A stretch of 64,000 bases of DNA from an uncultured Planctomycetales bacterium (GTDB lineage: Bacteria > Omnitrophota > Gorgyraeia > Gygaellales > Profunditerraquicolaceae). The position numbers are program-made. Shown one piece after another: positions 57,001 to 63,000 of the stretch; the stretch's first letter is position 1, and every line of letters starts with the position of its first letter. The DNA lies in the NCBI GenBank assembly GCA_964487475.1, contig CAZAPM010000009.1, positions 24,941-88,940 of the forward strand, written 5' to 3'.

Positions 57001-60000
57001 GGAATACGGAATCAAGGAAGTAGTGATCCATACCGGCCAGCACTATGACCAACTCCTTTCCGGGATCTTCTTTAAGGAACTGCGCATCCCGACACCCCGC
57101 TATGAGCTGGGGGTAGGGTCCGGTCCGCACGGCGCGCAAACCGCCAGGATGCTGGAAGGGATAGAGCAGGTGTTGCTAAAGGAAAAACCGGGGCTGGTCA
57201 TGGTGTACGGAGATACGAACTCCACCCTGGCAGGTGCGCTGGCAGCGGTCAAACTCGGCATACCCGTGGCCCACGTGGAAGCGGGACTGCGCAGCTTCAA
57301 CCCCGCCATGCCCGAAGAGATCAACCGGACCGCAACGGATGTCTTAGCGCAGATACTCTTCTGCCCGACACGCACCGCCGTCGAGAACCTGCGCCGCGAA
57401 GGCAGGGTCAGGGGAGTGCACCTGGTAGGTGACGTGATGTACGATTCCCTGAAAGCGGTCGAAAAGGACATTCCCTTGCCGCAGGTCGCGCGGCCTTACT
57501 TCCTTTGCACCATACACCGGGCAGAGAACACCGATTCCAAGGATACACTCCGGGAGATATTCCGGGCACTGGCAGGCCTGTCGCATCCGATCGTGATGCC
57601 TTTACACCCCAGGACCGGGGAGAGGCTCGCCCGCTTCGGGATCACTCCCGCAGGAAACATCCATATAACCGATCCGGTATCCTACTCCGGGATGCTCTCG
57701 CTGGAGAAACATGCGCGCTGCATCCTTACCGATTCCGGAGGGGTACAGAAAGAAGCCTTCATCCTGGGCACTCCCTGCGTCACCTTGCGCCGGGAAACGG
57801 AGTGGCAGGAAACACTGCGCGGCGGCCATAATATCCTTACCCGCACCGATCCGGAATGCGTCACGCGCGCCGTTCGCAAAGCGCTCTCCCGGGAAAGAAA
57901 AGCCGCAGCCGGCTCGCACTACGGCAGCGGTAACGCCCATGCAAGGATCGCGCGCATACTATCCAGGTGGCTGCATGCACATTGAGAACGCACAAAAACG
58001 GCTCGAGCGCTTTTACGGGAAGGTCGCCCGGAGTCAGAACCGGGAGATCATCTCCCTGATCACCGGCAGGACCCTGCTCGACGTGGGATGCGGCTGGGGA
58101 CTGCTGCTTCTGCAGATACTGCAGGAAAGGCCCGGGATTAAAGCCGCAGGGATCGATCCCGACGGCCAGGCCGTAGAATACGCCCGGAGGCACTTCCAGA
58201 TCGAGGCGGTGCAGGGGGATGCCTTTGCGCTCCCTTACGCAGACGGTTCGTATGATACCGTGATCCTCAGGGAGACCATCCATCACCTCGCAGAACACGG
58301 GAAGCTCGCCGACGCGCTCAAGGAGATCGGACGGGTGTGCCGCAAGGAACTGATCATCTTCGACCCCAATCCGACGTGGATCGTGCGCTTCTGCCGCACG
58401 CTCATCCGGCACGTCGATCCCGAAGCGCCTCTTACGCTGGTGCTGGAGCAGTTGCCCGCCGCGGGATTCGCGGTGGAAAAGGTGCGTTTCCGCGACGTGC
58501 TGGCCTTCCCCTTAAGCGGAGGGTTCGTAGGCAAGGAATTCGTGCCGCCCCTGGCCTGGTGCATGTCACTGGTGCTTTCCCTGGACAGGTTCCTCTGCCG
58601 CGCCAGCCATATGCTCGGCATACAAAAACAGGTTTGCTGGAGGTATCTGATCTATGCCCGAAAGATCAACCCGTAAGATACTCGTGACCGGCGTTGCCGG
58701 ACTGATCGGCTCGCATTTGCTCGACCGCCTGCTTTCCGATGCCAAGACCAGGGTGGTGGGTTTCGACGACCTCTCCGTAGGTACGCGCGCGCACCTGAAG
58801 CGCCACCTGCGCGATCCGCGTTTTAAGTTCATCCGCGGTGACGTCTGCGACAAAAAAGCCGTGGCCGCGGCAGCGCGGGGGTGCGGGACCATCGTGCATC
58901 TGGCTGCGGCGAAAAAGATAGGGGAGGAGGGCAACGCCCTGCGCACCTTAACCGTCAACTCCGAAGGCACCCGCGCGGTCCTGGAAGCAGCCCGGCCCCT
59001 GCGGAAAAAGGTGATATTCGCCTCCACCTCGGATGTGTACGGCGCCTCCCGGGATATCCCCTTCAGCGAAGAGGGTAATTCCCTGATCGGCCCTCCGACG
59101 GCGAAGCGCTGGGCGTATGCGGTCTCCAAGATGTATGCCGAACAGCTGGCCCTGGCCTATCACAAGGAACACGAAGTCCCGGTGGTGATACTTCGCTACT
59201 TCGGCTCCTTCAGCGCCCGGTCCAGCTTTTCGGGAAGCGGAGGGCATGTGCCGTTGTTCATCAACTCCATACTCAAGAACGCACCCGTGCTCATACACGG
59301 TGACGGCACCCAGACCCGCTCCATGGGCTACGTGGACGACATCATCGACGGCACACTCGCCGCCATGGAATCCCCGGACGCGGTCGGAGAGGTGATCAAC
59401 CTCGGCAATACGGAGGAGATGAGCGTACTCGAATGCGCCCGACTGATACATTCCCTGGCCGGTACGGGCAAAAAACTCAAACTGAAGTTCATCCCCCAGA
59501 AAAAGATCTTCGGGACCTACCGGGATATCGCCCGCAGGATACCCGACCTCCGCAAAGCCAAAGCCCTTCTGGGATTCGCTCCTAAGGTGACCATGAAGGA
59601 GGCGGTAATACGCACCTTAAAGGAGAGGAGAAAGAGCGGATCATGAAAGAGCCTTCGGTGCTGCTCATCCACCACCGTTCCCCGTACCCGCCCATGGCAG
59701 CGCTCTACCTCTGCGATGCGCTGGAGAAAAAAGGGGTCCGCTGCACTTTGCTTCCGGTGAACACCGAGCCCGGCGCTCTCGCCGCGGTCATGGACGCGGA
59801 ATCTCCCACGGCAGTCGCCATGTCCGTGATCACTTCTCCGCAGATCGCCTCATTCGTCGCGTTATCCCGTTCCCTCAAGCAGGCGTACCCTAAGATCCCG
59901 GTACTCTGGGGCGGGGTGCATCCATCCTTGAACAGCGCCCAATGCGCGAAAGAGGAGTATATCGACCATCTGATCACCGGCCAGGCGGAAGAGACCTTTC

Positions 60001-63000
60001 CGGATACCGTCCTTTCCCTGGCTGCCGGAAAAACTTTACCCCGGATAATCCCTTCGCAGCGCACCCTGCCCCTCGACCACTGGGCCCCGCGCTGGGAGCG
60101 CATCGACTTGAGCAAATTCATCTTCCCGGAGGAGTATTCCGTGCACAGTCCGGGGAAGCTGGCGTTCGACGACGTAAAAGCCCACCGGAAGAACAATATC
60201 TTCTATTACCTGGTCACGAGCCGGGGATGCGTGTTCAACTGCACCTTCTGCTCCGAGCCTCTGGGAGTGATCAACCACCGCAGCGGGAAAAAAGGATGGG
60301 ACTGCCATTCCTCGGATTGGGTGCAGCAGCAGGTCGAGACTATCCAGAGGGTCCTGCATTCAAAAAACATCCCCCTGGACGGAGTAGGGCTCTGGGACGA
60401 CATGTTCTGGGTGGATATGCCCCGCGCCCGAAGGATCCTCTCGATGCTCAAAGCCAAGGGCATCGGATACCTGGTGGAAGCGCGCGCAGACCAGCTGCTG
60501 CGAAACGACGCGGCGCTGCTGCAGGAGCTGGCGGATACGGGATGCATACAGGTGTTCGTAGGCGCGGAATCCGCCGACCAGGCGACCCTGGATTACCTGC
60601 AGAAAGGGACCCGGTTCAAGGATTACCTGCGCCTGATCGAGCTCGGCCAGGAATACCACATCGCCATCCGCTTCTCCCTGATCGTCGGGTTCCCCGGGGA
60701 AAGCGACGAGAGCGTCAACAAGACCCTGGATTTCGCGCAGTGGGTGCGCTCGCACAACAGTTACACCTCGATCAGCGGGCCCAAGATATTCACCCCGTAT
60801 CCCGGCACCGTGGAATTCGACCGGGCAGTGTCCCGCGGCCTGCACGTGCCTCCGGACACACTGGCCTGGAGCGATATACACAGGAAATCGGAACGTTACC
60901 TGACCCTTTACCCGTGGCTGAAGGAGAACCTCAGCGCGCAGACCCTTGCGCGTATCGGCCAGCTCCTCACGGAAGACCTAGGGTCCAAGAACGCATGAAA
61001 ACCCCGGCCGCACAGGGAAAGATACTCTTCATCATCCCCGCGTACAACGAAGCGGATAACATCGACCGTCTTTTCTCGAACATCGAAAAGAAGATGGGGG
61101 CGATGAACGCCCCTTACCGGATATTCCTGGTCAATGACGGCAGCACCGACCGCACCGAGGAAAAAGCGCTGCGGCACGCCGCGCGCATGCCGATCGAAGT
61201 GATCTCTCATCCGTGCAACAAGGGGGTAGGGGAGGTGTTCCGCAGCGGATTCGAAGCGGCGCTCTCCCAGGCCCGGCCCCAGGATATCATCGTCACCAAA
61301 GAAGCGGACAATACCAGCTGCCTGGAGATACTGCCTGAGATGGTACGCAAGGTCCGGGATGACGAAGCGGACCTGGTGCTGGCTTCCTGCTACGCAAAGG
61401 GAGGGGGCATCATCGGCACTACTCCCGACAGGGTGCTCATGAGCTCCGCGGCCAATCTTCTGCTGAAGACCTTTTTCCCCATTCCCCACGTACATACCTA
61501 CAGCTCGTTTTACCGTGCGTACCGGGCAGATACCTTCCGGCGCGCCTGGAGAGCCCACGAAGGACGCCTTTTCTACGACAACGGGTTTACCTGCGTGGTC
61601 GAGATACTGATACACCTGGCGCGCCTTCCGGTGCGCATCGCCGAAGTGCCTATGGTCTTACGCTGCAACTTCCGCTCCGGAAAAAGCAAGATGAAGAAGA
61701 CCCGCACGATCATGGGGTATTTTTCCCTGATCCGCAGGGAAATGCGCCTGCGCCGCTGCCTCGACCTGGCGGTGCTTAAGGAGCGTTTCCTGGAAGAGAC
61801 CGTGCCGGAGGGAGGGAAAAGCAGATGAAGCGGGTATATGTACCGGCGATCCTCCTTCTGGCCGCGATCCTGCGGCTCATACACCTGGACAAAGGGATAT
61901 CCAATGACGAGGGGCTGTTATGGTCCATCTCATCGCTGCCGCTGCGCGAGCTTGTCTCCTCGCTGGCGCGCATCGACGGATATCCGCCGCTCACCTATCT
62001 GATCGCCCATTTCTGGAGGATGGCGGTACCGGGCGAAGCGGGAATGAGACTTTACTTCGCGCTCTGCGGTACGGCGACGGTGGCGGCAGCCTACTGTCTG
62101 GCCAGAGAATACACCCGGGACCTGGCCGCATCACGGCTGGTAGCGCTGGCCGCGGCGATCTCGCCCCTGCTGATATACACTTCCCAGTATCTGCGCAGTT
62201 ATGCCGATTCCGGGATGTGGATACTGCTTTCGGTGCTGTTATTCCTTCGCTTGCACGGTCCGCAACCCGGCAGACGGGATCTTTTCGCATACGGGATGTG
62301 CGCGCTGGCAGCGATGTATACATTCTATTTCTCCTGGATCGTGATCTTCTGGCAGGGGATAAGCGCGCTGGTCAGCGCCAGAAAAACCCCTTTGCGCGCG
62401 CGGCGCATGGCCGGGCTTTATGCACTTATTGGCGCCGGCGCAATCCCCCTGGTGCCGTTGATCCTGCGCCAATCCCAGAACCTCACCGCGACCTTCTTTG
62501 ACTGGTCGCAGAAGGGCTTTACGGCGGGAGGGCTGCCTTTGGGAGCCTACAGCCGCAGTATCCTCTCATTACTGGGGGCGGATCCCGGTTTCCTGGTATT
62601 CCAAAACGGAGTCACCACGCTCTTTCCCAAACCCCTCCTCTGGAGCGCAGGTATCAGCCTGGCAGCGGTGCTCATACTTACGTGCGTGCGGGCGTATCTG
62701 GCGCTTCGGCGCATGCATCCGGCAGAGGATCCGCGCTCCTGGTCACTGCCCCTACTGCTGCTTTTACCCCTGGCAACCGCCTTTGCCGGAGGGTTATTTG
62801 CCGGAGCTCCCCCGAACGGAAAGTATTTCTCTTCCCTGCACGTGCTATTCCTTATCGGTGTCGCCGCCGCATATCCTTTTCCCCTGCGGCTGACCGCGAC
62901 CGGAATATTCATTGCCTTCTCATTATCCCGTTATCCCGAAGCCATTGCTCCGGAGATCGAGATCAAGCGCGCAGAAACGTATGTCCGGCTCCACACCCGG

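Follow-up and report, generated by a model that had tools for sequence, protein, structure and literature searches.

In three-component glycosylation systems a cytoplasmic synthase loads a sugar on polyprenyl phosphate and GT-C membrane transferases follow it; described examples are GtrB/GtrA/GtrC, ArnC/ArnEF/ArnT, PpgS/Rv3779 and the Citrobacter set of an UndP-Ribf synthase, a MATE flippase and a GT136 enzyme, and auxiliary enzymes that remodel the polyprenyl-phosphate-linked donor are known, namely the epimerase ORF13, DprE1/E2 and ArnD (PMC11127046). The radical chemistry of S-adenosylmethionine (SAM) and cobalamin (B12) is well known from pathways to antibiotics and cofactors. The literature that we searched, with incomplete coverage, contains no report of such chemistry on surface glycans and no description of a cobalamin radical SAM enzyme acting in the synthesis of O-antigen, capsule, nucleotide sugars or lipid-linked donors; the ‘radical SAM metalloprotein’ of the C. 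jejuni HS:19 capsule locus appears only as a table entry. Here we describe a locus where the two may meet. It lies in a stretch of 64,000 nucleotides (contig CAZAPM010000009.1, positions 24,941 to 88,940 of the forward strand; hereafter the window) from an uncultured Planctomycetales bacterium that GTDB places in the Omnitrophota, and centres on a gene at 59643–60998 (+) for a class-B, i.e. B12-binding-domain, radical SAM enzyme.

Comparison with related metagenomic loci shows that the conserved unit around this gene is sugar-nucleotide tailoring, then a Dpm1-like family 2 glycosyltransferase (GT2), then GT-C-type membrane proteins, and that the radical SAM enzyme is an optional extra step. 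Judged from sequence, the enzyme may be an optional donor-tailoring component, performing a C-methylation, of a three-component periplasmic glycosylation module, and we give this composite picture an even chance. Like the known three-component systems, the locus would have a cytoplasmic polyprenyl-phosphate synthase followed by GT-C transferases, with a short-chain dehydrogenase/reductase (SDR), GT2 and GT-C kept together and an enzyme that diversifies the donor; unlike them, its auxiliary enzyme is a cobalamin-type radical SAM protein and no flippase gene was identified in the window.

The genes of the cassette are the following.

48501–50118 (+): GFO_IDH_MocA oxidoreductase, UDP-GlcNAc 3-dehydrogenase-like (GFO), and LbH sugar N-acetyltransferase (Pfam, NCBIfam, orthologues)
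50061–56930 (+): ABC exporter (HepA/MsbA/PglK-like), methyltransferase, family 4 glycosyltransferase (GT4), GT2, methyltransferase, GT4 (Pfam, NCBIfam)
56927–57985 (+): protein of the non-hydrolysing UDP-GlcNAc 2-epimerase family, WecB/WbpI type (TIGR00236, 308 bits, cut-off 210)
57978–58676 (+): class I SAM methyltransferase, DVU_1556/MftM-like (Pfam Methyltransf_25/11)
58654–59646 (+): extended SDR, nucleotide-sugar type (Pfam Epimerase, 178 bits)
59643–60998 (+): class-B radical SAM enzyme, soluble (451 aa, ATG start; PF02310 and PF04055)
60995–61828 (+): small soluble GT2, 277 aa, Dpm1/PpgS/AglJ-like (PF00535, 74 bits)
61825–63270 (+): GT-C-like integral membrane protein 1 (GT-C1), 481 aa, with a C-terminal soluble domain of ~120 aa (sub-threshold PMT_2/PMT)
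63257–64000 (+): GT-C-like integral membrane protein 2 (GT-C2), running past the window end (PMT_2 23.7 bits, sub-threshold)

A cassette with and without the radical SAM gene

A preliminary description of the window had given the order SDR, radical SAM, GT2 and membrane glycosyltransferase. This order and its coordinates stand, and a further GT-C-like open reading frame (ORF) begins at 63257. The SDR/radical SAM, radical SAM/GT2 and GT2/GT-C1 junctions are 4-nt ATGA overlaps and the two GT-C genes overlap by 14 nt, so that co-translation of all five genes, SDR to GT-C2, is very probable. The arrangement is beyond chance, since orthologues recur together in independent metagenomic loci.

Close relatives of the radical SAM enzyme (57–64% identity) are found in six independent glycan loci. 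Three bacterial loci, labelled L001/L002 (from Omnitrophica metagenome-assembled genomes, MAGs), L009 and L010/L011, share the whole cassette with the window, in the order GFO, LbH, GT4, GT2, methyltransferase, GT4, WecB-type epimerase, SDR, radical SAM, methyltransferase, small GT2 and two GT-C-like proteins. Identities to the window proteins are 58–60% for the SDR, 60–62% for the radical SAM enzyme, 48–50% for the methyltransferase, 45–54% for the GT2 and 30–39% for the GT-C-like proteins (GT-C1 30%, GT-C2 34–39% in L001 and L009). The GT4–GT2–methyltransferase–GT4 orthologues stand in the same order in L001, L009 and L010, and WecB-type orthologues (53–60%) are directly upstream of the SDR in these three and in L178, a locus of another lineage. 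GFO and LbH orthologues (55–69%) occur in L001, L009 and L178/L181, where GFO, LbH, WecB and SDR are contiguous. Orthologues of the small GT2 are 45–59% identical in L001, L009 and L178, and those of the methyltransferase 48–53% in the same loci. The methyltransferase (DVU_1556 family 50 bits, MftM 47 bits in NCBIfam), whose start in the window was set by alignment with its L178 counterpart, is upstream of the SDR in the window and between the SDR or the radical SAM gene and the GT2 in related loci. L001 and L009 have genes for a GNAT protein, a Polysacc_deac_1 deacetylase and a methyltransferase between the radical SAM gene and the small GT2.

The radical SAM gene is present in the window, L001, L009 and L010, and wherever a bacterial cassette locus carries it, the SDR is the gene directly upstream. 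It is absent from L178/L181 and from an 88-kb contig. In that other lineage the P0234 contigs and L178–L181 read GFO-LbH-WecB-SDR-methyltransferase-small GT2-PMT_2-x-PMT_2, with no radical SAM gene between SDR and GT2. Identities of L178/L181 to the window are 60% for GFO, 69% for LbH, 60% for WecB, 58% for the SDR, 53% for the methyltransferase and 59% for the GT2. Since the cassette is kept without the radical SAM gene at the same identity levels, this gene is an optional element, inserted immediately behind the SDR. The four genes had been expected to be conserved together; this is true of the SDR, small GT2 and GT-C orthologues, which occur together in the window, L001, L009 and the P0234 contig and so support the general logic first proposed (nucleotide-sugar tailoring, polyprenyl-phosphate synthase, GT-C), but not of the radical SAM gene. 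Nor does the latter take the place of an aminotransferase or formyltransferase, as had been suggested by analogy with the arn genes, because orthologous cassettes (L178/L181) exist without it.

A smaller part of the cassette occurs on its own. In a Flavobacteriales genome (L174–L177, 7001–8753) an orthologue of the SDR (56%) overlaps the gene of a 254-aa GT2 directly after it, which is 36% identical to the window GT2 over its full length, and the two form an isolated unit. This unit stands among genes of type IX secretion system cargo (Por_Secre_tail), with no GT-C gene nearby.

The probable donor sugar and the proposed carrier route

The preliminary description proposed a pentose product; the conserved partners of the SDR point to a 2,3-diacetamido hexose. 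GFO scores 179 bits with the NCBIfam model of UDP-GlcNAc 3-dehydrogenase and LbH 104 bits with that of NeuD/PglB/VioB, both under cut-off. An enzyme set of this kind makes a 2,3-diacetamido-2,3-dideoxy UDP-hexose in the WbpB/E/D/I and GnnA/B pathways, and together with the WecB-type protein these partners would thus yield a 2,3-diacetamido-2,3-dideoxy-hexose rather than a pentose. The aminotransferase of such a pathway is a DegT protein in L001, encoded directly upstream of GFO; its orthologue in the window (46%) is at 38721, so the cassette aminotransferase appears to be displaced by ~10 kb in this genome. It follows two GT9 heptosyltransferases of the lipopolysaccharide (LPS) core (36675–38724), which indicate that the organism makes LPS, and is itself followed by an RmlB-like SDR, the whole group spanning 36675–40898.

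By its sequence, the cassette SDR is an orthogroup of its own in the UXS/ArnA/UDP-GlcA-epimerase/LegB neighbourhood. Its NCBIfam scores are 147.9 bits on LegB, a 4,6-dehydratase (cut-off 475), 142.9 on the UDP-4-keto-pentose/UXS model PRK11908 (cut-off 294) and 128.9 on ArnA PRK08125 (cut-off 777). Its nearest relatives in the Protein Data Bank (PDB) are 8VR2, of unknown function and the best match, human UXS1 (E 2e-42), Pal, the UDP-GlcA 4-epimerase BcUGAepi and ArnA (E 1e-32). In the motif A-S-T-S-D-V-Y-G the residues S124-T125-S126-D127 are invariant in 30 orthologues, as are Y155, K159 and R294-R295. The YxxxK motif is kept, R294/R295 align to the KRKPD of UXS1, and the Arg equivalent to ArnA R619 and UXS1 R277 is conserved, but an invariant Asp (T-S-D) replaces the catalytic Glu of the T-S-E in UXS and ArnA (Glu120 in UXS1, Glu434 in ArnA). 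The label ‘UXS-like’ thus fits the protein as a relative, UXS1 being among the nearest solved structures, and does not fit it as a family member. We reject ordinary GalE as another identity, since the SDR scores 119.6 bits on the galE model against a cut-off of 262 and has greater likeness to UXS, LegB and ArnA. 4-Epimerisation, 4,6-dehydration and decarboxylation are all possible reactions for a protein of this sequence. The orthogroup is large, with more than 120 orthologues at 55–64% identity and 2833 hits at E < 1e-30, and extends over Omnitrophota, Elusimicrobiota, Planctomycetes, Bacteriovoracia and Flavobacteriales. Its size and its presence without the radical SAM gene argue that the SDR does not serve that enzyme as a dedicated partner reductase.

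These data bear on a route modelled on the Ara4N modification of lipid A, in which the SDR would decarboxylate UDP-GlcA, the radical SAM enzyme would replace ArnB and the ArnA formyltransferase, an ArnC-like enzyme would load the sugar and an ArnT-like enzyme would transfer it to lipid A. The likeness is real in several respects: an extended SDR with UXS1 and ArnA among its relatives precedes a GT2 and GT-C, ArnC is among the weak matches of the GT2, the heptosyltransferases attest to LPS, and the GNAT protein and deacetylase of L001 and L009 recall the acylate/deacylate logic of the ArnA formyltransferase and ArnD. Profile and synteny comparison with arn operons, however, upholds the carrier/GT-C logic without upholding the identity of the enzymes. 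The SDR is far below the ArnA and UXS cut-offs and scores equally on LegB, and the GT2 scores 37 bits on ArnC, where 529 are needed, and has none of ArnC's transmembrane helices. Neither the scanned window ORFs nor the flanks retrieved for L001, L009, L010 and the P0234 contig yielded a UDP-sugar 6-dehydrogenase (PF03721/PF00984) that could supply UDP-GlcA; a TviB-like enzyme of this type is found only in the archaeal locus L003, and one may be encoded elsewhere in the window genome. The conserved partners are instead enzymes of UDP-GlcNAc 3-amination, acetylation and 2-epimerisation, no aminotransferase occupies the radical SAM position, the radical SAM gene is optional, and nothing was found that links the module, with its two or three GT-C paralogues per locus, to lipid A, one of the acceptors originally named. 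We consider the Ara4N-like route very improbable.

The small GT2 was described as polyprenyl-phosphate-synthase-like, and its best NCBIfam matches are indeed all polyprenyl-phosphate glycosyltransferases, each far under its cut-off: PpgS (52.7 vs 370 bits) and ArnC (37.1 vs 529), then AglJ, dolichyl-phosphate hexose transferase and PgfS. The protein shows no transmembrane helix in its 277 residues (Kyte–Doolittle, 19-residue window), and therefore resembles Dpm1 and PpgS rather than the anchored ArnC and GtrB. We infer that it is a polyprenyl-phosphate sugar synthase.

The GT39/ArnT-like label of the first membrane protein draws its support from the family more than from the window protein, which is itself sub-threshold: all three GT-C1 orthologues match PMT_2 (best E 1.8e-8). 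GT-C1 has at least seven strongly hydrophobic segments and a conserved C-terminal soluble domain, and the acidic pair D28/E29, directly after its first transmembrane segment in the first extracytoplasmic loop, is invariant in the three orthologues. A homologue search with GT-C1 returned the query alone, and a profile of three sequences found no match in the PDB. The full product of the GT-C2 gene has 449 aa in L093, and the L001 orthologue of GT-C2 matches PMT_2. The presence of two or three GT-C paralogues per locus (L001, L009, P0234 contig), a further difference from GtrB and ArnC systems, points to more than one acceptor site or to polymerisation.

Taken together, the cassette suggests the following route. 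GFO, the aminotransferase, LbH and the WecB-type 2-epimerase would make a 2,3-diacetamido-type UDP-hexose, which the SDR at 58654 and the class I methyltransferase would modify further. The Dpm1-like GT2 would put the sugar onto polyprenyl phosphate, the lipid-linked sugar would be flipped across the membrane, and outside the cytoplasm the two GT-C-type enzymes would join it to an acceptor glycan, probably an LPS-associated one. The radical SAM enzyme would act before flipping, more probably on the nucleotide sugar and possibly on the lipid-linked sugar.

The radical SAM enzyme and its predicted chemistry

The protein encoded at 59643–60998 was called a B12-radical SAM enzyme in the preliminary description, and its domains agree with this. 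PF02310 (B12-binding) matches residues 5–121 with 68.1 bits (cut-off 32.1; model positions 2–119 of 121) and PF04055 (Radical_SAM) residues 191–365 with 56.8 bits (cut-off 29.5). The cluster motif CxxxCxxC is C196-x3-C200-x2-C203, and its three cysteines are invariant in 32 members of the family. Across the same number of members 60 columns are invariant, many of them Trp, Asp, Arg or Glu, with stretches such as WDD, E-x-R, GAES, GFPxE and SGPK-x3-PYPxT and several Trp, a pattern that would suit a substrate that is small, polar and conserved, for example a sugar. There is no hydrophobic segment (Kyte–Doolittle, 19-residue window).

Members of the family are few. Among 5.8 billion proteins a word-indexed search retrieved ~120 relatives at 33–64% identity to the window protein, and a full hidden Markov model (HMM) scan of 1.84 billion cluster representatives gave only ~12 clusters (50% identity) above 345 bits, below which there is a continuum of generic B12-radical SAM proteins. 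Among the matches listed by a scan of metagenome contigs with an alignment of the close clade, L094 (48% identity, partial) is the one true member, and the 80 loci with relatives of 22–30% identity listed by a genome-contig scan with the family alignment had no cassette in common with the window (blastp); matches to a generic Fe-S motif (GC..C.FC) dominated both listings. The closest relatives come from Omnitrophota MAGs. Neighbourhood statistics rest on 11 loci, bacterial and archaeal, and all 11 are of the surface-glycan type.

An AlphaFold2 (AF2) model built with 32 homologues is predicted to be reliable (pLDDT 91.5, pTM 0.89). Foldseek matches it to TsrM, AprD4, OxsB, MgmA, MiaB, TokK and CysS at TM-scores of 0.58–0.66, with E values of 1e-17 for TsrM, 2e-15 for OxsB, 1e-14 for MgmA and 1e-11 for TokK (TM-scores 0.58–0.64 for these four). 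When the family profile is compared with the PDB, TsrM and TokK match residues 3–211 with their cobalamin domains and OxsB matches residues 32–360; a plain sequence search of the PDB gives partial matches only, to MgmA/QCMT (the MCR glutamine methylase, 9CCB) and AprD4. AprD4 is a non-cobalamin diol dehydratase, and its example shows that a cobalamin-like domain need not mean cobalamin binding. The alignment of the N-terminal domain to the true cobalamin domains of TsrM, TokK and OxsB mildly favours a genuine cobalamin site. On this sequence evidence the protein is a genuine cobalamin-type radical SAM enzyme of a rare, uncharacterised family, and it is predicted to use cobalamin.

No curated NCBIfam model is reached, all best scores being far under cut-off: HpnJ (TIGR03471) 95 bits against 577.6, PhpK-type P-methylases 93, TIGR04013 82, C-methylases of peptides that are synthesised ribosomally and modified post-translationally (RiPPs) 71–74 and BchE 64. 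The curated models of the sugar C-methylases GenK, GenD1, Fms7 and MoeK5 do not match the window protein.

SAM would be reductively cleaved at the [4Fe-4S] cluster and a hydrogen atom abstracted from an unactivated sugar carbon. The most likely single outcome would be methylcobalamin-dependent C-methylation to a branched-chain sugar, to which, as a part of the composite picture, we assign a probability somewhat short of even. It is favoured because the N-terminal domain resembles a real cobalamin domain, because methylases make up the majority of characterised cobalamin-dependent radical SAM enzymes, among them GenK, GenD1, Fms7 and the moenomycin enzyme MoeK5, which C-methylate sugars, and because HpnJ, the closest curated family, is grouped in a similarity network with the C-methylases MoeK5 and Fom3 (PMC9204698). 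The window enzyme shares with GenK, GenD1, Fms7 and MoeK5, which act on sugar carbons (PMC9204698), an N-terminal cobalamin domain and a radical SAM core; unlike them it is found in a primary surface-glycan rather than an antibiotic context, and is compact, with 451 residues and no extra C-terminal domain.

HpnJ, which serves hopanoid cyclitol ether formation together with the GT2 HpnI and the deacetylase HpnK, invites a closer comparison, because L001 and L009 likewise bring a B12-radical SAM enzyme together with a GT2 and a deacetylase. Its proposed reaction is a contraction of the ring of glucosamine in bacteriohopanetetrol glucosamine (PMC9204698). The window protein differs from HpnJ in its low score, and none of the Pfam-scanned window ORFs is a hopanoid gene. 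We set an HpnJ-like ring contraction aside as the main model, since a cyclitol product could hardly be a glycosyl donor for GT-C.

Several observations weigh against an optional C-methylase in a carrier-linked module. AprD4 has the highest Foldseek TM-score in both normalisations (0.66/0.66, E 2e-16). An NAD(P)-dependent sugar oxidoreductase adjoins the radical SAM gene in four of the six independent locus types. Loci of a more distant clade (43%; L005, L006 and L008) have no small GT2, and in L005 and L008 GT-C is absent as well; the radical SAM family is accordingly not tied to a lipid-carrier route. The sample of 11 neighbourhoods is small. GT-C1 stays below threshold on PMT_2 (23.7 vs 26.1 bits) and PMT (20.9 vs 22.7), and its single-sequence AF2 model is unusable (pLDDT 41). 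No flippase candidate (GtrA, SMR, MATE) was seen in the window; the contig runs on beyond it. Finally, no sequence feature divides methylases from non-methylases among class-B radical SAM enzymes, and HpnJ is itself a non-methylase (PMC9204698).

The first two of these points bear on the nature of the chemistry. In the same genomic context the enzyme could be an AprD4-like 1,2-diol dehydratase, a radical dehydrogenase or an epimerase, with a keto sugar handled by the SDR and the resulting deoxy or epimerised sugar then loaded on the lipid carrier. AprD4 has nearly the same length (454 aa), ranks second in the profile comparison with the PDB (71.6 bits, spanning the entire radical SAM core) and works with the NADPH-dependent partner reductase AprD3 (PMC5461906). 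A comparable oxidoreductase is within one gene of the radical SAM gene in the cassette loci, in the archaeal loci L003/L004 and in L012, and takes the form of a GFO fusion in L006/L007 and L094. In the SDRs of L003 and L012 no acid/base residue follows the catalytic Ser/Thr, which is also the case in reductases and epimerases, and neither HpnJ nor BchE, both among the closer curated families, is a methylase. The recurrence of oxidoreductase neighbours would be better explained by a keto-sugar intermediate than by methylation. On the other hand, SDRs are common in glycan loci, so that adjacency to one says little, and the window SDR, with its very large orthogroup, is conserved in cassettes that have no radical SAM gene, which further weakens the argument from neighbours. 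The likeness to AprD4 is also confined to the radical SAM core: the AprD4 model NF033070 scores 38.8 bits against a cut-off of 500 on residues 251–399 only, below the HpnJ, PhpK and RiPP C-methylase models, whereas PF02310 is matched over its full length and the N-terminal domain has its matches in the cobalamin domains of TsrM, TokK and OxsB, not in that of AprD4. Non-methylating chemistry of this kind is in our view rather doubtful, though a serious competitor.

The more distant loci bear on the link with the carrier. The 43–48% clade stands in capsule-type loci with ABC transporters (ABC2 transporter, Poly_export, Wzz, Caps_synth), and L006/L007 have a PMT-like GT-C five genes upstream of the radical SAM gene. 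In L012 the radical SAM orthologue is between a GT4 and another B12-radical SAM gene, with unrelated SDRs one gene off on each side. In the archaeal loci L003/L004 its neighbours are a short SDR that is not orthologous (25% identity) and a GHMP-kinase-like gene, with a TviB-like UDP-GlcNAc 6-dehydrogenase, an AglJ/ArnC-like GT2, a DVU_1556-type methyltransferase and a small EamA protein, beside an unannotated 119-aa ORF, encoded nearby. The radical SAM enzyme might then serve another nucleotide sugar, one used by the GT4 and GT2 enzymes, or act on a finished repeat unit or polymer, its place in the cassette being incidental. The clade in capsule loci and the arrangement in L012 speak for this, as do the three genes that separate the radical SAM gene from the small GT2 in L001 and L009. 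The bacterial cassettes, however, put the radical SAM gene directly after the SDR and outside the GT4/GT2 block, the SDR otherwise directly precedes methyltransferase, GT2 and GT-C, in the window the radical SAM gene overlaps the genes on both sides at its start and stop codons, and even the very distant archaeal locus has a methyltransferase of this type and an AglJ/ArnC-like GT2. We regard an enzyme unconnected with the carrier branch as unlikely.

Two further genes of this family's loci are of interest in themselves. Directly after the family radical SAM gene, L006 (9521–12184) and L094 (894–3518) encode ~880-aa fusions of a GFO_IDH_MocA domain with a second radical SAM domain; they carry no annotation, and non-ribosomal peptide synthetase (NRPS) genes are nearby.

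Other radical SAM genes and meaning for surface glycans

The gene at 59643–60998 is indeed, as the preliminary description had it, the second B12-radical SAM gene of the window. The first, at 22745–24199 (+), encodes a protein of 484 aa whose motif CWWGKCTFC (Cx4Cx2C) is unusual in comparison with CxxxCxxC. It is remotely related to the second (24 bits) and belongs to a separate glycan cluster (19779–34539) of GT2, GT2, radical SAM, DegT, GT2, GT2, GT4, GT2, methyltransferase, LbH, a membrane ORF and carbamoyltransferase. Two polytopic ORFs of this region have no Pfam match (19779–21047, 422 aa, ~10 hydrophobic segments; 30761–32680, 639 aa, at least five) and may be polymerase, ligase or GT-C-like proteins. 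Upstream of the cassette, at 46851–48534, a bona fide RmlA (477 bits, cut-off 361) precedes a short protein (274 aa) resembling RmlD (48 bits vs 224), with no RmlB or RmlC nearby.

Further class-B radical SAM genes are found in the related loci: four more in L003 (1–6384), one in L009 (17128–18564) and one in L012 (5188–6669). The P0234 contig encodes an 886-aa fusion of a B12-radical SAM enzyme with a GT4 (14430–16963). This suggests that the glycans of these uncultivated lineages are extensively modified by radical chemistry.

A C-methyl or other radical modification of a 2,3-diacetamido-type sugar, linked to a nucleotide or to polyprenyl phosphate, may be the first step of its kind assigned to the synthesis of donors for LPS or surface glycans; we put this forward tentatively, as possible but less than probable. 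Otherwise orthologous cassettes with and without the enzyme constitute a natural experiment for the sugar modification and for the function of the whole small family. If the proposal of a donor-tailoring radical SAM enzyme is true, it extends to radical chemistry the idea that auxiliary enzymes diversify lipid-linked donors in three-component glycosylation, the same cassette with or without the enzyme would display two different surface epitopes, and the family would be a new functional one common to Omnitrophota-like bacteria and archaea. As several further B12-radical SAM genes often occur in these loci, unusual branched or rearranged sugars may be present in their glycans, and such sugars would bear on cobalamin dependence, phage receptors and glycoengineering.

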